A program made the translations under genes and the position numbers. This document shows, one piece after another, positions 23,036 to 30,208 of a stretch of DNA of 64,000 nucleotides; within the stretch, counting starts at the first letter, position 1; each line of letters starts with the position of its first letter. The notes under the pieces were generated by a model. It did no database searches. It was given only the letters and a program-made list of their open reading frames with translations, and had not been told where the DNA came from. The stretch is from Alphaproteobacteria bacterium GWC2_42_16 (lineage in GTDB: Bacteria > Pseudomonadota > Alphaproteobacteria > UBA9655), in assembly GCA_001767835.1 (NCBI GenBank), contig MEMA01000052.1, positions 5,753 to 69,752 of the forward strand. Direction: 5' to 3'.

Positions 23036-23171
23036 ATCATCGTGAAAAATTTTAGATAAAATTGCAAAAATAGAATATATTTTTGGCACAATTTTATCTT
23101 GACTCGCACTTCAAGTATATACATTGTTTTGTGTAATAACTTTTTAAAAACCTAAAAGATAAAGGTATCTT

Positions 23172-24086
23172 ATGCGTGAGCGGTTGAGTTTAAATATTAG
23201 TGTCGCTCGATCTTGTTTTGTTAAATGTTTGGGCTGTTACAATCATTTTGGAAATAGCCCTAATTTAATAAGTACAGAGAATATCCTTTCTTTTTTAAGT
23301 GCTGCAAAAAAGAGAGGATTTACTAAAGTTACCCTTTGTGGCGGAGACCCCCTCTCTAGACCAAACATTACAGATCTATTAAAAAAAATAAACACACTAG
23401 GTTTTTTTATATCTCTCGACACTGTTGGGACTCCGATTCTGAGGGAAGCCAAAACTATATTTTATGGAAGTTCTTTAATAAGCAAGGTTGATGAAGCTGA
23501 TTTAGCAAAATATGTTGATTTAATTGGCATTCCATTAGATGGTCCTTCTAATGAGATCATTAGTCTTTTTAGGACAGAGCGCGTTAACCAGTTTGATGAA
23601 CAAATGCTTATTCTAGAAAAGCTCTCTGCAGCACAAGCCAAAATTTGCATTAATACTCTTGTTTACAAAGGAAACATTAATTATGTAGAAGAAATATTGC
23701 CAATTATAAAGAATTTCGACGGAATTAAGAAATGGCAAATATTTCAATTTATGCCAATTGGTCCCCTGGGATATAAAAATAGAAATATTTATGAAGTAAG
23801 CGATGAAGATTTTTTCTTGTTAAGAAATAGAATGAAAAAATATAAAGAGGAGCTATCCAAGCATATAAAATTAGAATTTAAAGCAAAGGCAGAGAGAAAA
23901 GGAAATTACATGTTTATTGATTCTGAAGGTTTGGCATGGGTACCTAACATTGCAATGAACGAAGAATGGAATGAACAAACAGATTCTACTCACAAGAGAC
24001 TTATTGTTGGTGATATAAATATTCCTGAAGATCACAAAAAAATTCTAGAGAGAGCTTTACACCCAAAGTCAATTAATATTGAATAA
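23172..24086 (+). CDS. Radical SAM enzyme, viperin (RSAD2)-like; candidate prokaryotic viperin
   Basis: A CX3CX2C cluster motif sits at aa 15-22 (RSCFVKCLGC) and a GGDP SAM-binding motif at KVTLCGGDPL. Segment-by-segment resemblance to viperin: DLIGIPLDGPSNEI, ICINTLVYKGN, KKWQIFQFMPI (compare RWKVFQCLLI), EVSDEDFFLL, and NYMFIDSEG. The gene is AT-rich. Confidence 0.6.
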   Translation: MRERLSLNISVARSCFVKCLGCYNHFGNSPNLISTENILSFLSAAKKRGFTKVTLCGGDPLSRPNITDLLKKINTLGFFISLDTVGTPILREAKTIFYGSSLISKVDEADLAKYVDLIGIPLDGPSNEIISLFRTERVNQFDEQMLILEKLSAAQAKICINTLVYKGNINYVEEILPIIKNFDGIKKWQIFQFMPIGPLGYKNRNIYEVSDEDFFLLRNRMKKYKEELSKHIKLEFKAKAERKGNYMFIDSEGLAWVPNIAMNEEWNEQTDSTHKRLIVGDINIPEDHKKILERALHPKSINIE

Positions 24087-24139
24087 GTTTCTGGCGATAT
24101 ACAAAATTATTCTGAAAATGTTATGTAAAACTTCTTTTA

Positions 24140-27100
24140 TTACAGAGTGAGCTTGTTAAGTTTAGCTTTAATCCTTATAAAATGAGGGGAGTCTTCTGGA
24201 AAATGAGCTTGAATAACTTCTAGCGCTTGCTTTAGATAATCAACGGATTGCTTTTTAAAGATTTCAGATTGTTGCATATCTTCCTTATTTATATGCTCAA
24301 AGGTTTCTTTTAGATACAGATCAGATAAGATTTCTAAGCATACGTAACTTTCCGCATATTTCTTAATTTGAAATATTCTTAAAGCCTTCTTAATGAGATT
24401 TTCAGCGGTTTTTATATCATTTTCTAACATATAGACTTGCCCAAGATTCATTATAACAGGAGCAACATCAATATGATCTTTGCCATAGGTCTTCTCATAA
24501 GTTTGAAAACTACGTTCAAGTAAATCTTTTGCTTTCTCATAGTTGCCTTGCTCTCTATAAACACTTCCTAGTCCTGCTAAAACCAGCGCAAACCAGGGAT
24601 GGTTTTCAAAATGGTTCCACCTATAAATCATAAGACTTTCTTCAAGGGATTGCTTTGCTTTCTCATAATTACCCATTTCTTTATAAATACTTCCTAAATG
24701 CTCCAAAGTCCGGGCAAACCATGGATGGTTTTCATACGAATTCTTCTTATAAACCATAAGGCTTTCTTCAAAGAGTTGTTTTGCCTTCTCATAATTACCT
24801 TGTTCTTTATATACACTTCCTAACCCTACTAGAGCCCGAGCAAACCACGGATGGTTTTCATAGGAATTTTTCTTATAAATCACGAGACTCTCTTCAAGGA
24901 GTTGTTTTGCTTTCTCATAGTTACCTTGCTCTCTATAAAGATTTCCCAACCATACCAAAGTCCAGGCAAACCAGGGCTGAGCTTCATGGGAGTTCTTTCT
25001 ATAAATCAAAAGACTTTCTTCAAGGAGTTGTTTTGCTTTCTCATAGTTACCCTGGTCTCTATAAACACTTCCTAGCCAAGCCAAAGCCCTAGCAAACCAA
25101 GGATTGTTTTCATAGGAATTTTTTCTATATATTACAAGACTTTCTTCAAGGAGTTGTCTTGCTTTCTCATAATTGCATTGCTCTCTATAAATGCTACCTA
25201 AACGTCCCAAAGCCTGAGCAAACCAAGGGTGGTTTTCATAGGAATTCTTTTTGTAAATCACAAGGCTTTCTTCAAAGAGTTGTTTGGCCTTCTCATAATT
25301 GCCTTGCTCTCTATAAACATTTCCGAGCCATCCCAAAGTCCGAGCAAACCAGGGGTGGTTTTCATAGGAACTCTTCCTATAAATTAAAATACATTGCTCT
25401 AGGAGTTGTTTTGCTTTCTCATAGTTGCCTTGGTCACTATAAACACACCCTAAACACCCCAAAGCTTTAGCAACCCAAAAATGGTTTTTATGAAAATTCT
25501 TTTTATAAATTGCAATACTTTGTTCAAAGAGTTGTTTTGCCTTCCCATAATTGCCGAGATCCCTATAAACATTTCCTAATTCACTACCTATAGAAGCTAT
25601 AACAAAATCTGTTAATAAATTAGGATGACTTAAAAACATTTCACAATGTCTTATGACAAAGCTCATTTTAGCAAAATCTTCCTTATCTATCACTTCACCA
25701 ACATAATTCTTAAACGCAGTTCCAATGGGTTCTATAAAACGTTTATTCTTTTCTGAGTTCTGTAATTTTGTAAGATAAGCTAGGGCTATAGCTTGGGTGC
25801 TCCGATGTATAGAAAAGGCTGGGATTGAACCAGAAGGAAGAACTACTTCATTTGTGACAAAAGAATGTTTTTTCAAGTTATAAATAAAATTATCAACCAC
25901 AGTACTTGTCTTGTACTTGTCTAATAAATCTCTTGGAATGTTCTGAGAATCGAGAAGACTGATAAACAATAAAAGATCCCAAAAATCCTTGTGGGAATTG
26001 ATAATATGTTGCAAAGATAAAGTGATGATCCCATAGCGAGTTTTAGTATAGTAACTTGCTTCCTCTAAAAGACTTTGTTGTACACTTTCAAAGTCTCTAT
26101 CATATTGGATGAGCTTCTCAAGATATGTCCCGTATGGTACATTTGTGGCCTTCAAGTAATAAGCAGCAATGGATACATCCAAAGGAAAAGGGGGAATATC
26201 ATTTAAAAACTTTTTTGCTTGCTCGGTTTGGGTAGCCGTGAATTTACTCGAATTTCCATTGGTCATAATCTTAACAAAGAGAGCTAGTTTGTCTTCAGGA
26301 GATAGCTCCCCTATTTGAATTGCTTCGTTAATATTGTTGTTATTTTTAATATTATTATCTCTTGTAATAAGGATTACTTTTCCTCTTCCCCAAACACTCG
26401 GATCATGGGGGAAAGACTTTTGGATATCCTTAAATTTTTCTACATTATCATAAATCAATATCCAATTTGGAATACGCTTTAATTTATCTCTCACAAAGAA
26501 AATAATCTTTTTTTCTCTTTCATCAGCGTTTTTAATATCCTTAATGCCCCTCACTTTTTCTTTCTCTGCTTCTGTTATGGCCAGAGCTTCAGCAAGATTT
26601 TCAAATGAATTAATCAGCTTGTCCTCTGACTCAGCATTAATTTCCCAAACTACCTTGGCATTTTGTTGACGCGTGTAATGTCGAGCGAGGGTTGTTTTAC
26701 CAGCACCTCCCATTCCTGTAAGAGCTATGGCTTGGATTTCATGATGTCCTTTTAAGCTTTTATCAATTCTTTCCATTAAATAAGGCCGATCTAAGAATAC
26801 GGATTGAGTAGGAATACTCAGATCATCTCTAACAGCTATACCATAATCCAAGGCTTTGTTTTGCGCGGACCCGCCTTCTTTTTTTTCAACAAAGGTTAAA
26901 AACCAAACGCAAAGAACCGCTATGCTTAATACGCTTCCTATAAAAAAGGATTTCTTTCTCAAATTCTTAGTATTGAAAAAATTGCTGATATACACCCTCA
27001 ATTGAGACACTAGGCCTATGCCTGACAAAGTTTTATCTTCTTGATGCAATTGCTTGTGCACTATATCTGAAGCACCACAAATTGATTCATAATGACTTTT

Positions 27101-27895
27101 AAAGTCTAAGATAATTTGGTCTAAAGCTATGTTTGGCAATAGTCTTTTTAAGACTGCGAAAGTAAAGTCATAATAATTTTCTCGCCGTAAATTATGTACA
27201 CATGCCATATTACCACGGTCTTGAAAAATATCATTTTTGATATTTTTGCTTGGGAATAGCGCAATAATACTATTTTGTGTTTTCCTGATTTTCTGTATGA
27301 AGGAAGTGACGTCTCGCTTATTTTTATTATCTACTCCTTCAACCTGCTCAATCATTGCTTCTGGAATAGCATAAATAATCAATTCGGATTTCAGCGTTTC
27401 GGTATTATTAACAGGATCTTTAATAAATATTTTACCTTCTCTGGCTTCAATGAATATCGTAACACCAGCTAGGTTTAGATGACTTTCTAGATAACGAATG
27501 AAAGAGGAGTGATATTCTTGATCCCGCCAATATACAATCACACAGGTAGGTTGCTCAGGATCAAGTTGGTCAGCAATTTTTAATAACTGTTCTTCAAAAG
27601 ATGCCCGAATTAATAAACTCAGGTAATGTTCTTTTAGCAGGGAAAGTTTCTTAGACTTTTCGATAAAATATATGATTCCATCCCGAGAATTACACTCCAG
27701 CTTCATCATGATGTTACGCATGTGAGCTTCGATTGTTTTCGGAGAAATAAATAGGCATGCGGCTATGGTTTTTGCCGATTTTCCGCTGAGAAGATAAGCC
27801 ATGATATCTATTTCTCTACATGTGAATTTAATTTCATTCACAATTTGCAAGTGTGATTCATAAATATCTTGAGGTAAGATAATATTGGCTTTCAT
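24140..27895 (-). CDS. STAND NTPase: N-terminal LuxR/GerE HTH, alpha/beta domain of unknown type, predicted TM helix, NB-ARC ATPase, and about 10 TPR units
   Basis: HTH: REIDIMAYLLSGKSAKTIAACLFISPKTIEAHMRNIMMKL (aa about 26-66). Hydrophobic helix: FFIGSVLSIAVLCVWFLTFV (aa about 316-336). NB-ARC: P-loop GMGGAGKTT (aa 394-402), Walker B WILIYDNV, and ILITRD. TPR: 42-aa units NHPWFARxLxxLGxVYREQGNYEKAKQLLEESLVIYKKNSYE. Confidence 0.8.
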   Translation of the reverse strand: MKANIILPQDIYESHLQIVNEIKFTCREIDIMAYLLSGKSAKTIAACLFISPKTIEAHMRNIMMKLECNSRDGIIYFIEKSKKLSLLKEHYLSLLIRASFEEQLLKIADQLDPEQPTCVIVYWRDQEYHSSFIRYLESHLNLAGVTIFIEAREGKIFIKDPVNNTETLKSELIIYAIPEAMIEQVEGVDNKNKRDVTSFIQKIRKTQNSIIALFPSKNIKNDIFQDRGNMACVHNLRRENYYDFTFAVLKRLLPNIALDQIILDFKSHYESICGASDIVHKQLHQEDKTLSGIGLVSQLRVYISNFFNTKNLRKKSFFIGSVLSIAVLCVWFLTFVEKKEGGSAQNKALDYGIAVRDDLSIPTQSVFLDRPYLMERIDKSLKGHHEIQAIALTGMGGAGKTTLARHYTRQQNAKVVWEINAESEDKLINSFENLAEALAITEAEKEKVRGIKDIKNADEREKKIIFFVRDKLKRIPNWILIYDNVEKFKDIQKSFPHDPSVWGRGKVILITRDNNIKNNNNINEAIQIGELSPEDKLALFVKIMTNGNSSKFTATQTEQAKKFLNDIPPFPLDVSIAAYYLKATNVPYGTYLEKLIQYDRDFESVQQSLLEEASYYTKTRYGIITLSLQHIINSHKDFWDLLLFISLLDSQNIPRDLLDKYKTSTVVDNFIYNLKKHSFVTNEVVLPSGSIPAFSIHRSTQAIALAYLTKLQNSEKNKRFIEPIGTAFKNYVGEVIDKEDFAKMSFVIRHCEMFLSHPNLLTDFVIASIGSELGNVYRDLGNYGKAKQLFEQSIAIYKKNFHKNHFWVAKALGCLGCVYSDQGNYEKAKQLLEQCILIYRKSSYENHPWFARTLGWLGNVYREQGNYEKAKQLFEESLVIYKKNSYENHPWFAQALGRLGSIYREQCNYEKARQLLEESLVIYRKNSYENNPWFARALAWLGSVYRDQGNYEKAKQLLEESLLIYRKNSHEAQPWFAWTLVWLGNLYREQGNYEKAKQLLEESLVIYKKNSYENHPWFARALVGLGSVYKEQGNYEKAKQLFEESLMVYKKNSYENHPWFARTLEHLGSIYKEMGNYEKAKQSLEESLMIYRWNHFENHPWFALVLAGLGSVYREQGNYEKAKDLLERSFQTYEKTYGKDHIDVAPVIMNLGQVYMLENDIKTAENLIKKALRIFQIKKYAESYVCLEILSDLYLKETFEHINKEDMQQSEIFKKQSVDYLKQALEVIQAHFPEDSPHFIRIKAKLNKLTL
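24400..25410. repeat. Tandem 126-bp (42-codon) near-identical repeats encoding the TPR array
   Basis: The motif ggttttcatagg recurs at exact multiples of 126 bp (positions about 24853, 25105, 25231, 25357). The translated units are nearly identical. Confidence 0.85.
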
Positions 27896-27985
27896 AAGAA
27901 TAAAATTTCTACATTTTTTCTCAGTATTATGCAGTTATACCTAAAAGGTTCAAGTTATTTTTACGTCAAGCTACTAAGTGATTTT

Positions 27986-28006
27986 CCCTTAGTCCTGTCC
28001 TAAGGG
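27986..28006. promoter_or_regulatory. Perfect 7-7 inverted repeat CCCTTAG-N7-CTAAGGG in a divergent promoter region (candidate HTH operator)
   Basis: cccttag at 27986-27992 and ctaaggg at 28000-28006. Extra CTAAG/CTTAG copies lie at 27974-27978 and 28051-28055, the latter within a second tttcccttag. The site sits between the divergent genes 24140-27895 (-) and 28083-28679 (+). Confidence 0.45.
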
Positions 28007-28082
28007 TATTCCCAGAATGACTAAACATACACTATTTTGCTAAAATTTCCCTTAGCATTTGAACGATTAAAGCTGAACTTTA

Positions 28083-28679
28083 ATGACAGGTAAATTATAT
28101 ATGTTTATCTCTATTGAACCAACAGAATATTATTATCACAAGGACATTTTGGAGCCATTTCTTGGCTATATCAAAGAAAATCCTAGCCTTAGATGGTCTT
28201 TTGAGAACCATAAAAATGCTATCTTTATTGTCTCTCTAGATGAGGCAAGAAGCATTTATGGAGGAGCTATGCTTCTTAAAGAAAAATTTAGTTCGTTACC
28301 TAGAGAAGTCCAAAAGAATATGAAAAATCTTGGGTTAATCAATAAAAATGTATGGACCTGCACCACCCTTCTTTATAAAAAGAATAATTATTCCGATCAG
28401 TGTGAATTCTTTTTCGAGACATTTTATCGAGATCTTTATAGGAAACTTGTTGAATTTGGAGTAAAAGAGAAAACGGGTTTTTTATACATGATGTTAGAAC
28501 CTGGCGAATATTTTTGTACTGAGGTCCTAGGCTGTTGGCCTTATATCAATAAAATTAAACTGCATGATTCTTTGAAAGACCTCTCTCATGGAGTTTTATC
28601 TCTAAGGGAAAATCAATCGCAATCCCATATAAAAACTGGGAGAAAGAAATTTCCTAAGGAGATAAAATTGGCGGCTTAG
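28083..28679 (+). CDS. Hypothetical protein (198 aa), no confident family assignment
   Basis: Clean AT-rich ORF followed by a strong terminator. Only a vague GNAT/LuxI-like secondary-structure pattern is visible (FFFETFYRDLYRKLVEFGVKEKTGFLYMML). Confidence 0.5.
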   Translation: MTGKLYMFISIEPTEYYYHKDILEPFLGYIKENPSLRWSFENHKNAIFIVSLDEARSIYGGAMLLKEKFSSLPREVQKNMKNLGLINKNVWTCTTLLYKKNNYSDQCEFFFETFYRDLYRKLVEFGVKEKTGFLYMMLEPGEYFCTEVLGCWPYINKIKLHDSLKDLSHGVLSLRENQSQSHIKTGRKKFPKEIKLAA

Positions 28680-28709
28680 CCTCCCTGTTCATAGCTGCCG
28701 TAAACTAAC

Positions 28710-28815: not shown

Positions 28816-29148
28816 CTACATCAGATTCCGCGTTGCCGCAGGAAGACGGACCACAAGGCCATCAAGCTCGGGGCGCATGATGATTTGACATCCCAGACGA
28901 GAAGTCTGGGTAAGCCCAAAGGCGAGGTCAAGCATGTCTTCTTCATCCTCAGTGGCATCCACAAGAAGTTCATACCATTCGGGTTCAACGATAACATGAC
29001 AGGTAGAGCATGCCAAAGAGCCCTCACAAGCGCCCTCAAGAAAGAATTTATCGCTATTTTGATGGGCAATTTCTAAGACGGACAACCCATTAGGAGCCTC
29101 GACCTCAACACGCTCGCCATCTGGTTTAATAAAAGTCATCTTTGGCAT
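28816..29148 (-). CDS. fdx: 2Fe-2S ferredoxin (adrenodoxin/Fdx type, ISC-associated)
   Basis: [12 protein letters not shown]-terminus, [11 protein letters not shown]...RLGCQ cysteine ligands. The start was moved to ATG 29148, which has an aaagga RBS. Confidence 0.9.
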
Positions 29149-29224
29149 ATGCGGTCCTTTCCATAAATCCAATTTTTATATAGACTACTTCCTCTAAAAG
29201 TCCAACTTATTTCTCAAAGAGAGT

Positions 29225-29638
29225 TTGATGATCCGCGTACGAAAATTTAGAATGGAAAAGCTGGTTCGAGACAAAATGGCCGAAAAATTTCAAAAAAGAG
29301 GAGGCCGCTTAAAGCTTCGGACTTTAACTCCCCAAGATTTCCAAATTCAGCTATTAGAGAAACTCAAAGAAGAAGTTGCAGAAGTCATACATTCTGTCAC
29401 ACAAGAAGAGCTTTGTGAGGAAATGGCTGATCTCTTAGAGGTTATGCGTGCCCTTGCTAACATGAAACAAATTCCTTGGAGAGATATTGAACACATGCGT
29501 CTTGAAAAGAAAAAAACAAAGGGAGGTTTTGAAAAAGCAATTTTCGCTGAGTTTGTCGAGCTTGACTCAAAGGATCATCCCGGCATCGATTATTGTCTCA
29601 AACATCCCCAAAAATACCCAGAAGTTTTTGATTTTTAA
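29225..29638 (+). CDS. MazG-like / phosphoribosyl-ATP pyrophosphohydrolase-like NTP pyrophosphatase
   Basis: KLVRDKMAEKF N-terminus, then a helical EEVAEV...EEMADLLEVMRAL pair of acidic metal-binding helices. Confidence 0.6.
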   Translation: MMIRVRKFRMEKLVRDKMAEKFQKRGGRLKLRTLTPQDFQIQLLEKLKEEVAEVIHSVTQEELCEEMADLLEVMRALANMKQIPWRDIEHMRLEKKKTKGGFEKAIFAEFVELDSKDHPGIDYCLKHPQKYPEVFDF

Positions 29639-29997
29639 ACCACATCTATCAGGACAGAAATTTTGTCGATAACTTCAGTTATAACGTCTAAAGGGACTTT
29701 TCCTTCAAATTTGGCCTTCCTTACCCTCCAATCTAAGCTTTTAATTTGATCCGCAAGCACAACGCCTTTAATGGCTCCGTGAGAAGGGAGCTGAACTTCA
29801 AAGGGATATCCTTTTTTATGACTTGTGATAGGACACAATAAAGCCAGACCTACTTTTTTGTTATAGGTAAGGGGAGAAATCACTAAAGCAGGACGGGTCT
29901 TTCTGATTTCTGAGCCCTGGCTCGGATCAAGATCAATCCAAACAATATCCCCTCGTTCAGGAAAATAGTCTTTTTGTTTACCAAGACTCTTTGCCAC
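29635..29997 (-). CDS. mazF: Type II toxin, MazF/PemK family endoribonuclease
   Basis: RGDIVWIDLDPSQGSEIRKTRPALVISP...LLCPITS...VVLADQIKSLDW. Confidence 0.88.
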   Translation of the reverse strand: MAKSLGKQKDYFPERGDIVWIDLDPSQGSEIRKTRPALVISPLTYNKKVGLALLCPITSHKKGYPFEVQLPSHGAIKGVVLADQIKSLDWRVRKAKFEGKVPLDVITEVIDKISVLIDVV

Positions 29998-30208
29998 GAG
30001 AAGGCCCTATCTGAACTTCTTTATGAATATTATCTGGGGATACTTGATCAAGTAATGACTCGAGAGAGTAACTTTTACTAATAACGATGCGATGATCCTG
30101 AAGAGAAACATCGACAGAGGTTCCTGCGTGGATGCCAATCTTATCAGCCAAAACACGTGGTATCCTCAGGCCTAAGCTATTGCCCCATTTTGTAACATGG
30201 CTTTGCAT
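29978..30208 (-). CDS. mazE: Type II antitoxin, MazE (AbrB/SpoVT fold)
   Basis: VTKWGNSLGLRIPRVLADKIGIHAGTSVDVS. The gene overlaps mazF by 20 nt. Confidence 0.85.
   Translation of the reverse strand: MQSHVTKWGNSLGLRIPRVLADKIGIHAGTSVDVSLQDHRIVISKSYSLESLLDQVSPDNIHKEVQIGPSRGKESW

Follow-up and report, generated by a model that had tools for sequence, protein, structure and literature searches.

A candidate viperin-related radical SAM family with a HIT-like partner, and a putative LuxR-STAND/GNAT-like module beside a partnerless member in a low-GC alphaproteobacterial island

Introduction

A low-GC island on contig MEMA01000052.1 of Alphaproteobacteria bacterium GWC2_42_16 (assembly GCA_001767835.1) encodes a 304-aa radical S-adenosylmethionine (SAM) protein, and the question raised by this locus is whether that protein is an antiviral viperin. 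A sequence-only reading of the DNA had proposed that it is a prokaryotic viperin (pVip), an enzyme that would convert nucleoside triphosphates (NTPs) to 3'-deoxy-3',4'-didehydro-NTPs (ddhNTPs) in defence against viruses. We analysed a 64-kb stretch of this contig (positions 5,753 to 69,752 of the forward strand), referred to as the window; loci fetched for comparison are identified by L numbers, and the window's own locus is WIN. Our comparisons point to an uncharacterised family that is related to viperin and usually accompanied by a HIT-like protein and, next to the radical SAM gene in the window, to what appears to be a previously undescribed LuxR-STAND/GNAT/operator module. The features of the radical SAM gene are as follows.

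23172..24086, plus strand: window radical SAM gene, encoding a 304-aa enzyme included in alignment A1 (viperin-related family without a name)
23214..23237, plus strand: CX3CX2C motif of the [4Fe-4S]/SAM cluster (C15, C19, C22), within RSCFVKCLGC
23340..23348, plus strand: GGD (G57-G58-D59), corresponding to GGE, the SAM-binding motif of viperin

Homology to viperin

The open reading frame (ORF) and the three cluster cysteines named in the sequence-only reading were both confirmed. No rival ORF of comparable size is found on either strand, and Pfam PF04055 (Radical_SAM) matches residues 9-173 at E 1.9e-14, with 54.6 bits against a cutoff of 29.5. This match above the gathering score and the CX3CX2C motif place the protein in the radical SAM superfamily; the sole other Pfam match is Fer4_12. 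The cysteines align with C84, C88 and C91 of viperin (mouse numbering, as for all viperin residues given below), and CX3CX2C is invariant in 42/42 family members, whose cluster signature reads SCFVxCxGCYNHF. GGD is present in 21/21 family sequences compared, with glutamate at the same site in 14/14 viperins; the change is conservative, and D59 is nearly invariant in the family (at least 90% of 42 sequences). Database entries for the window protein are labelled 'PqqE' or 'MoaA/NifB/PqqE/SkfB family'.

For remote comparisons, the family was represented by profile A1, built from 42 homologues that include the window protein, and viperin by a reference set of 14 sequences, four of them eukaryotic and ten pVips annotated by PGAP as 'viperin family antiviral radical SAM protein'. 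The human viperin query was checked against mouse viperin 5VSL (633 bits). The pVips were drawn from plasmid annotations (Nostoc, Anabaena, Thiodictyon, Sulfitobacter, Methanomethylovorans, Moraxella, Acinetobacter, Pseudoalteromonas and Treponema), because a metagenome scan with eukaryotic viperin motifs gave mostly eukaryotic-looking sequences, many with fungal-type hydrophobic N-termini. These ten pVips are 25-40% identical to human viperin.

Profile–profile alignment of A1 with the four eukaryotic viperins by hhalign gave a probability of 98% (E 1.6e-13), rising to 99.6% (E 1.8e-24, 228 columns, 20% identity) with all 14 viperins; the window protein itself is 16-21% identical to viperins. 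When PDB sequences were searched with A1, viperins were the best matches (37 bits, E ~1e-8, residues 5-253), followed by PqqE, SkfB and MoaA, which matched over the core only. The AlphaFold2 (AF2) model of the window protein was of high confidence (pLDDT 95.1, pTM 0.92), and viperins or viperin-like enzymes filled the first 17 places among its Foldseek matches in the PDB (E 5e-14 to 3e-12, template modelling (TM) score 0.63-0.77), consistent with a viperin-like fold, although SkfB (5e-12) and SuiB trailed them by only one to two orders of magnitude. The block-by-block correspondence with viperin drawn up in the sequence-only reading was reproduced by profile–profile alignment in all seven blocks, given here as window protein / viperin.

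Block 1: LNISVARSCFVKCLGC / VNYHFTRQCNYKCGFC
Block 2: KVTLCGGDPL / KINFSGGEPF
Block 3: DLIGIPLDG / DILAISCDS
Block 4: CINTLVYKGN / KINSVINRFN
Block 5: KWQIFQF / RWKVFQC
Block 6: YEVSDEDF / FVIGDEEF
Block 7: NYMFIDS / SYLILDE

Judged from these profiles and the predicted fold, the likeness is well beyond chance, and the homology is remote but real. The family shares with viperin and pVips (RSAD2; SAM-dependent nucleotide dehydratase) an N-terminal-proximal CX3CX2C core, a length of ~300 aa and a predicted partial barrel followed by a C-terminal extension. Like viperin, it lacks an auxiliary cluster, keeps the seven blocks collinear and has equivalents of D182, N222, V224, N229, W246, F277 and Y302, as well as, in most members, a lysine equivalent to K120. 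Unlike viperin, it carries an insertion of ~15 residues after beta-3 and GGD for GGE.

Membership of the viperin family

The scores obtained with viperin models fall far below those of true viperins. NCBIfam NF038283 gave the window protein 65.3 bits against a curated cutoff of 180, nearly level with TIGR04053 (62 bits; own cutoff 395). When members were scanned singly, 40 of the 42 matched NF038283 at E <= 1e-5 (best E 2.4e-24), and none of the 42 reached any curated NCBIfam cutoff. The PADLOC pVip models, which derive from the original pVip set, served as an independent check. They scored the window protein at 77 bits (E 3e-22, over 86% of the model); calibration gave 223-324 bits for PGAP-annotated pVips (six phyla; five in the membership test), 56-87 for family members and 47 for an unrelated TIGR04053 SPASM enzyme. 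Two hidden Markov models (HMMs) separated the groups in the same manner. The viperin HMM built here scored viperins at 302-381 bits, family members at 33-75 and the window protein at 66, and the family HMM scored the family at 329-438 bits, the window protein at 432, viperins at 20-72 and the TIGR04053 enzyme at 66.

In a published operational definition, a viperin is a sequence whose branch joins known viperins and not the outgroup (10.1101/2023.09.13.557418). The phylogeny that the sequence-only reading had suggested as a check went against it. Our neighbour-joining (NJ) tree (66 sequences, 273 columns, 100 bootstraps; not maximum likelihood and without MoaA outgroups) placed the family outside a viperin clade of ten pVips and four eukaryotic sequences supported by 100/100 replicates. 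The bipartition joining the family with viperins appeared in 0/100, and the window protein lay deep within its own family. The group closest to viperins was another one, which includes a radical SAM protein encoded on an E. coli plasmid with a deoxynucleoside kinase and NudI. The GGE SAM-binding motif in combination with CxxxCxxC has likewise been used as a filter for viperins (10.1101/2023.09.13.557418); the window protein has CxxxCxxC, and its GGE is GGD.

We counted 35 viperin-invariant columns (at least 13/14 viperins), of which 13 are common to the family (the three Cys, GG, G159, D182, N222, V224, N229, W246, F277 and Y302) and 22 differ. Changes from viperin to family include H79 to S, N85 to F, N122 to T, E127 to D, N158 to V and S180 to P, as well as S183 to G, K220 to C, K247 to Q, E293 to K and M298 to R. 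The set of residues holding the NTP in viperin, which we take to be H79, K120, R194, K220, N222, K247, Y302 and R347, was cross-checked against the columns invariant in the 14 viperins; K220, K247, H79 and R347 are those that contact the CTP triphosphate and nucleotide. Counterparts of N222 (N161), Y302 (Y246) and probably K120 (K52) are kept in the window protein; H79, K220 and K247 are swapped for S10, C159 and Q189, R347 has no counterpart, and the equivalent of R194 is ambiguous, R134 lying one alignment column away. A docking study places S124, K220, N222 and K247 in the active site of mouse viperin (PMC11970327).

The beta-8 loop in the C-terminal extension of viperin reads the nucleobase via Cys314/Lys319, Arg257 or a conserved Asn (10.1101/2023.09.13.557418). 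Profile alignments end at family residue ~258, and the last 45 residues cannot be aligned with the viperin extension; they form a structured region in the AF2 model, with strands at 254-258 and 276-281 and a helix at 285-296. The sequence-only reading had agreed to yield to a better match in another radical SAM subfamily combined with loss of the C-terminal nucleotide-binding residues. The outcome comes close to this, as those residues do not appear to be conserved and other radical SAM profiles are nearly as strong, with viperin still nominally the best match. Its viperin label stands as far as the closest solved relatives are concerned, which are viperins by profile and by predicted fold, and falls for family membership (65 vs 180 bits, tree and residues).

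On these comparisons, the window protein is a viperin homologue but not a viperin or pVip. Because membership is not supported, neither ddhNTP synthesis from NTPs nor antiviral protection appears supported for it, and calling it an antiviral viperin is premature.

The plasmid-encoded protein in the group closest to viperins deserves separate mention. It is encoded in a cassette of the E. coli IncK2/Z plasmid NZ_CP027324 (locus L153, 116684-118694), where a viperin-like radical SAM gene that PGAP does not name viperin forms an operon with deoxynucleoside kinase and NudI genes. Among plasmid-encoded proteins it matches the window protein best (28.5% identity, E 3e-14), and the cassette, which adjoins IS600 on a conjugative plasmid, resembles the family in lying near nucleotide-handling genes. 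However, the plasmid protein groups with the viperin sister lineage and scores 105 bits on the PADLOC pVip models, and its partners are a kinase and a Nudix protein, with no HIT-like, STAND or GNAT-like gene. The cassette may be an unrecognised viperin-like defence cassette.

The family and its HIT-like partner

A word-indexed search retrieved 140 relatives of the window protein, and an exhaustive profile search gave 156 family representatives (50% identity clusters, E <= 1e-30). No curated model in Pfam or NCBIfam names the family. Its hosts comprise Alphaproteobacteria, Verrucomicrobia, Chlamydiae, Oligoflexia and metagenome-assembled genomes (MAGs) of gut Clostridia and Bacilli, along with Bacillus, Paenibacillus, Mycobacterium szulgai and many Streptomyces and Kitasatospora. 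Twenty-seven positions are invariant (C15, F16, C19, G21, C22, T54, G57, G58, D83, T84, G86, P121, D123, G124, F133, R134, N161, T162, N168, W188, Q189, F191, P195, G197, K237, G253 and G280); all 27 are present in the window protein, partly by construction, since it is among the 42 profile sequences. No family member was found in GenBank phages, IMG/VR or the PLSDB plasmids, where the best match is the 28.5% identical protein described above.

Neighbouring genes were clustered over 54 loci, and a recurrent partner, designated X (alignment A2), was then searched for with an HMM in six frames over 56 loci. This ~200-aa HIT-like protein, divergent in sequence, is encoded within 2.5 kb of the radical SAM gene in 44/56 loci, mostly directly upstream, and in L004 the two are fused into a 485-aa protein. 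The pairing is found in Actinomycetota, Bacillota, Chlamydiota, Verrucomicrobiota, Pseudomonadota and Bdellovibrionota-like MAGs. No known family matches X strongly, but 6/27 members touch Pfam HIT, and its sole matches among PDB sequences are four HIT proteins. Its invariant His aligns to the middle His of the HIT motif, reading H-phi-H-phi-W-x-x-P in X versus H-phi-H-phi-H. A search of the 64-kb window in all six frames detected no X (best E 1.1), and none was detected in L010-L013. Literature searches on a HIT plus radical SAM cassette, on distant viperin homologues and on PDB 8WM2 returned nothing relevant.

The remaining neighbours are largely enzymes of nucleotide and small-molecule metabolism. 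Recurrent genes encode an NT5C-like HAD nucleotidase, PNP_UDP_1, NDK, NUDIX, HD, an AAA_28 kinase and DHBP synthase, together with SDR proteins, a pyridoxal phosphate (PLP) decarboxylase, a thiamine pyrophosphate (TPP) enzyme, GT4 with PIG-L in actinomycetes and a cytidylyltransferase-phosphoenolpyruvate (PEP) mutase fusion. Further fusions of the family are HAD-radical SAM, radical SAM-NUDIX and radical SAM-TPP enzyme, the last in P0121, the top-scoring representative. The family's usual partner is thus HIT-like and not the nucleotide kinase of pVips, and its contexts are mostly biosynthetic or housekeeping, unlike those of viperin and pVips. Such surroundings point to a tailoring pathway that handles nucleotides rather than to a defence island.

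Strikingly, genes for aminoacyl-tRNA synthetases also recur beside the pair of radical SAM and HIT-like genes (L001, L004, L007/L015, L020, L022, L023, L026, L029, L036, L049, L055, L057 and L058). They encode ProRS in actinomycetes, PheS/PheT and an Asn/Asp-type synthetase in gut Firmicutes, and two paralogues of the TyrRS/TrpRS class in several MAGs. Their recurrence could reflect housekeeping synteny, self-resistance or a link to aminoacyl-adenylates. At L008/L014, from a Verrucomicrobia MAG, the family member lies between a PhyH dioxygenase and the cytidylyltransferase-PEP mutase fusion, a phosphonate-type context, and at L007/L015 it comes after a TPP enzyme and a HAD gene.

The low-GC island and its STAND and GNAT-like genes

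The radical SAM gene of the window is one of three genes in an island of ~5.6 kb whose features are listed below. A STAND ATPase neighbour had been recognised in the sequence-only reading and proved to combine a GerE/LuxR helix-turn-helix (HTH), NB-ARC and TPRs; as also stated there, no nucleotide kinase gene adjoins the radical SAM gene.

23040..28700, no strand: three-gene low-GC island, 31-36% GC, between clpB and a 2Fe-2S ferredoxin gene
23099..23133, plus strand: promoter-like block 5' of the radical SAM gene (TTGACT, 15-17 nt spacer, TACATT/ACATTG, then TTTT)
24140..27895, minus strand: STAND protein, 1251 aa, gene convergent with the radical SAM gene; LuxR/GerE HTH, NB-ARC and TPR
about 24356-25618, minus strand: about ten TPRs of the STAND protein (Pfam TPR_12 6e-86)
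26153-26782, minus strand: NB-ARC of the STAND protein, aa 372-581 (Pfam 7e-13)
about 26885-26953, minus strand: Lys-flanked hydrophobic stretch of 23 aa, KKSFFIGSVLSIAVLCVWFLTFVEKK, aa 315-337 of the STAND protein, in an otherwise unassigned part between HTH region and NB-ARC
27671-27826, minus strand: N-terminal LuxR/GerE HTH of the STAND protein, aa 24-75 (Pfam GerE 1.5e-16)
27974..28006, no strand: candidate LuxR-HTH operator, where the promoters of the STAND and GNAT-like genes diverge; 19-bp palindrome CTAAGtGATTTTCCCTTAG and a third half-site CCTAAGGG
28083..28679, plus strand: GNAT-like protein, 198 aa, whose AF2 fold is closest to LuxI-type acyl-homoserine lactone (AHL) synthases and FeeM

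All three genes are low in GC, and the flanks have 45-50% GC. The trio of radical SAM, STAND and GNAT-like genes is present in six complete loci (WIN, L010, L011, L012, L013 and L160), and its outer neighbours are unrelated in every one of them. The radical SAM gene adjoins the 3' end of the STAND gene in 6/6 loci with that flank present; in L011 and L160 it is inverted, lying downstream of the STAND gene and codirectional with it, and is still adjacent. The STAND orthologues adjoining it in L010-L013 are 64-75% identical, and the GNAT-like protein has diverged to 29-32% identity. The island is foreign and horizontally acquired; no tRNA, integrase or flanking direct repeat was found at its borders. 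An AT-rich inverted repeat, AGATAAAATTG...CAATTTTATCT, lies at 23048-23098, between the end of clpB and the promoter-like block, and could represent either the terminator of clpB or the junction of the island. Just downstream of the island, 28816-30208 encodes the 2Fe-2S ferredoxin, a small MazG/PRA-PH-like NTP pyrophosphohydrolase and a MazE/MazF pair; none of these genes is conserved beside the trio in other loci.

The STAND protein joins a GerE/LuxR HTH to a STAND NTPase and TPR sensor repeats, as do MalT, the LAL regulators and AfsR-like proteins. NCBIfam models of MalT and AfsR match it in part, and the adjacent promoter region holds a palindromic candidate operator. It differs from MalT and LAL regulators in having its HTH at the N-terminus (theirs is C-terminal), an NB-ARC-type NTPase and, between the two, the 23-aa hydrophobic segment. 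The L012 orthologue conserves this segment; if it formed a lone transmembrane helix, the membrane would separate the HTH from the ATPase, an arrangement that would make no obvious sense. The TPR array contains seven tandem units of 126 nt (42 aa, 71-77% identical) at 24487-25542. No Avs model of PADLOC matched the STAND protein, which retrieved generic TPR models and weak partial matches only (VakA, 5e-05).

The GNAT-like protein had no match in Pfam, NCBIfam or PADLOC, and its 18 homologous clusters are all annotated as 'hypothetical'. Its AF2 model (pLDDT 77.5) was assigned by Foldseek to the GNAT fold, with top TM scores of 0.47-0.48 for BjaI, MesI and EsaI (E about 2e-4) and FeeM also among the best TM matches (~0.48). 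Read by eye, the sequence has no acetyl-CoA pyrophosphate loop. The true start is probably M7 (ATG at 28101), because the first six codons (MTGKLY) are absent from homologues. Nine of the 16 aligned GNAT-like sequences end in -LAA (EIKLAA in the window, 28668-28676), which resembles the C-terminal residues of the ssrA tag and suggests that ClpXP may keep the protein unstable. That the GNAT-like protein might be a diverged HIT-like partner was rejected (hhalign probability 0.05%).

The GNAT-like gene is divergent from the GerE-STAND gene wherever the flank is visible, except in the lineage L162/L163. With its ~200-aa GNAT-like fold, a divergent gene for a LuxR-family HTH protein and a lux-box-like 19-bp palindrome, the pair recalls LuxI/LuxR quorum-sensing pairs and FeeM-type N-acyl amino acid synthases. 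It departs from LuxI/LuxR in that the GNAT-like protein has no match to Autoind_synth, the profile of LuxI-type AHL synthases, and a TM score of ~0.48, and in that NB-ARC-TPR replaces the autoinducer-binding domain. The palindrome, CTAAGGGAnnnTCCCTTAG, occurs as a single copy in the window (one mismatch allowed, 0.02 expected). Its core, TAAGGGAnnnTCCCTTA, was found in exactly seven of the 159 fetched loci, always in the STAND/GNAT-like intergenic region, with a GNAT-like gene in 7/7 and the STAND gene also in 6/7; as L006 and L012 are one and the same contig, the seven loci correspond to six separate places. Outside the window, the palindrome lies at 4997-5015 in L010, 5825-5843 in L011, 14831-14847 in L012, 5595-5613 in L013, 35-51 in L156 and 3636-3652 in L158. 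This distribution makes it likely that the palindrome is the operator of the STAND LuxR-type HTH. A perfect 14-nt inverted copy of an operator arm, CTAAGGGAAAATCA, lies at 28602-28615, within the 3' end of the GNAT-like ORF. At a distance of 609 nt from the operator, this copy might serve as a second site or be due to chance.

The radical SAM gene shows no copy of the palindrome in its promoter-like block or upstream of it. Read by eye, near-identical promoter-like blocks precede the gene in WIN, L010, L011, L012 and L013, where the surrounding sequence differs; a consensus promoter and terminator scan performed no better than on shuffled sequence. The gene would thus be linked to the STAND/GNAT-like pair by lasting adjacency and shared base composition. 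Our searches of the literature found no description of a LuxR-STAND/GNAT/operator module.

Predicted chemistry and alternative explanations

We favour a composite reading, with a probability of about 0.6, in which the window protein represents a distinct viperin-sister family, acts on a nucleotide-type substrate and belongs to the STAND/GNAT-like island. Given its cluster site, GGD motif and confidently predicted viperin-like partial barrel, it should cleave SAM reductively to the 5'-deoxyadenosyl radical. The enzyme is predicted to act on a nucleotide or on a small molecule linked to one (NMP-X, NDP-X or possibly a differently bound NTP), and the radical would probably attack the sugar of the substrate, as in viperin. 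We infer a nucleotide-type substrate because equivalents of viperin N222, W246, Y302, D182 and mostly K120 are kept, because the HIT-like partner is adjacent or fused in 44/56 loci, and because HAD nucleotidase, NUDIX, NDK, PNP, AAA_28, HD, TPP and cytidylyltransferase-PEP mutase proteins recur nearby or are fused. The triphosphate and base clamps of viperin (K220, K247, H79, R347 and the beta-8 loop) appear to be replaced by the invariants C159, Q189, S10, K237 and R242, so that the substrate or its binding mode is probably unlike that of CTP in viperin. The family seems to behave as tailoring enzymes do in the metabolism of small molecules or nucleotides, and not like a stand-alone defence gene, and the island would most likely make and regulate a modified nucleotide-derived metabolite, whether signal, antibiotic or antiviral.

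Several points weigh against this reading. The substrate class is suggested by distant homology and gene neighbourhood, and radical SAM enzymes with non-nucleotide substrates score near viperin (TIGR04053 at 62 bits and AhbD among profiles, SkfB and SuiB in Foldseek). Conclusions from the partnered majority may not transfer to the window clade, which is without X, and in gut Firmicutes many of the adjoining genes have housekeeping roles (pheST, asnS, relA), perhaps by plain synteny. The basic family invariants R134, K237 and R242 could rebuild an NTP site, and R134 may be viperin R194 shifted by one alignment column. The tree that excludes the family from the viperins is an NJ tree on 273 columns and not a maximum-likelihood one. 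Finally, since the palindrome is not upstream of the radical SAM gene, it is adjacency that speaks for regulation of this gene by the STAND protein.

A bolder version of the favoured reading is possible but tentative, and we think it has less than an even chance of holding. Viperin-sister radical SAM and HIT-like proteins would constitute an undescribed radical nucleotide-linked pathway outside immunity, a second ddh-like chemistry, and in one alphaproteobacterial lineage such a radical SAM gene would have been captured into a mobile STAND-gated three-gene circuit, a new type of module. In this circuit, the STAND NTPase would bind the palindrome and control the LuxI/FeeM-like GNAT protein, and the radical SAM and GNAT proteins would jointly make a modified-nucleotide-derived signal or antiviral.

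The alternative that survives best, though we consider it unlikely, is that the window protein is a pVip in function, divergent in sequence, that makes ddhNTPs against phages, with the STAND protein sensing infection via its TPRs and inducing expression. Viperins are its best structural and profile relatives, the PADLOC pVip match (E 3e-22) spans 86% of the model, and the equivalents of Y302, N222 and W246 are conserved. Its setting would also fit, as a low-GC mobile island with an NTPase of the STAND class, common in defence, and with MazEF and the MazG-like pyrophosphatase 1-2 kb away. Elsewhere, some family members lie beside NDK or AAA_28 kinase genes or are fused to NUDIX, like pVip-kinase pairs, and the E. 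coli plasmid combines a related radical SAM gene with deoxynucleoside kinase and NudI in one cassette. Yet HMM scores are three to four times below those of every true pVip tested and near the generic radical SAM background, the family lies outside the viperin clade, and K220, K247, H79 and R347 are not conserved, nor does the beta-8 loop appear to be. Most family loci look biosynthetic or housekeeping rather than like defence islands, the effector domain of the STAND protein is a DNA-binding HTH without a match among Avs models, and the radical SAM gene has no copy of the operator upstream of it. The lack of family members in the phages and IMG/VR searched is neutral.

Somewhat less probable again is a maturase or tailoring enzyme of the MoaA/NifB/PqqE/SkfB type, acting on a peptide, cofactor precursor or sugar, with a likeness to viperin confined to the shared core. 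The window protein has this generic core and its public annotation names ('PqqE' or 'MoaA/NifB/PqqE/SkfB family') in common with MoaA and the SPASM/twitch enzymes (TIGR04053, PqqE, SkfB and AhbD). NCBIfam TIGR04053, AhbD, NirJ and MoaA score within 3-20 bits of viperin, the Foldseek E-values of SkfB and SuiB are only one to two orders weaker, the TIGR04053 enzyme reaches 66 bits on the family HMM, level with the best pVips, and a small NHase-alpha-like ORF lies near a family member at one locus. However, the window protein lacks the second Fe-S domain of SPASM/twitch enzymes, with no SPASM Pfam match and no Cys after residue 159. Matches to those enzymes span the core only (~10-200), whereas viperin alignments reach ~258 and include the WQxFQ and YxxID blocks. 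No cognate pathway gene, be it for a precursor peptide, pyrroloquinoline quinone (PQQ), molybdenum cofactor or heme, is conserved nearby; what is conserved is a HIT-like partner, with accessory genes for nucleotide-handling enzymes.

Least probable of the three is that the radical SAM gene is a passenger, and that the real unit consists of the LuxR-STAND and GNAT-like pair with its operator, working in a quorum-sensing-like manner or in toxin control; adjacency would then reflect closely related MAGs. The palindrome does lie only between the STAND and GNAT-like genes, the radical SAM gene has its own promoter-like block, and GNAT-like homologues occur without STAND or radical SAM genes in L162/L163. 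But the radical SAM gene keeps its place at the STAND 3' end in 6/6 loci despite differing flanks, divergence of the GNAT-like protein to 29-32% identity and two inversions of the radical SAM gene, and the low GC is common to all three genes. We also rejected identification as a glycyl-radical activase or QueE, as their matches cover only the first ~90 residues and no partner genes are present.

Implications

Permissive pVip models match the family at E ~1e-22 over most of the model, and defence-system scans can therefore miscount it as viperin, as may happen with the PADLOC match of the window protein (E 3e-22); annotation calls for caution here. The LuxR-NB-ARC-TPR, GNAT-like and palindrome unit would provide a compact test case for a bacterial STAND NTPase as transcription factor. 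To our knowledge, viperin is so far the sole characterised enzyme with this variant of the radical SAM fold. A viperin-sister family with a rebuilt pocket and an obligate-looking HIT-like partner could lead to a second way of modifying nucleotides by radical chemistry and to new nucleoside analogues.

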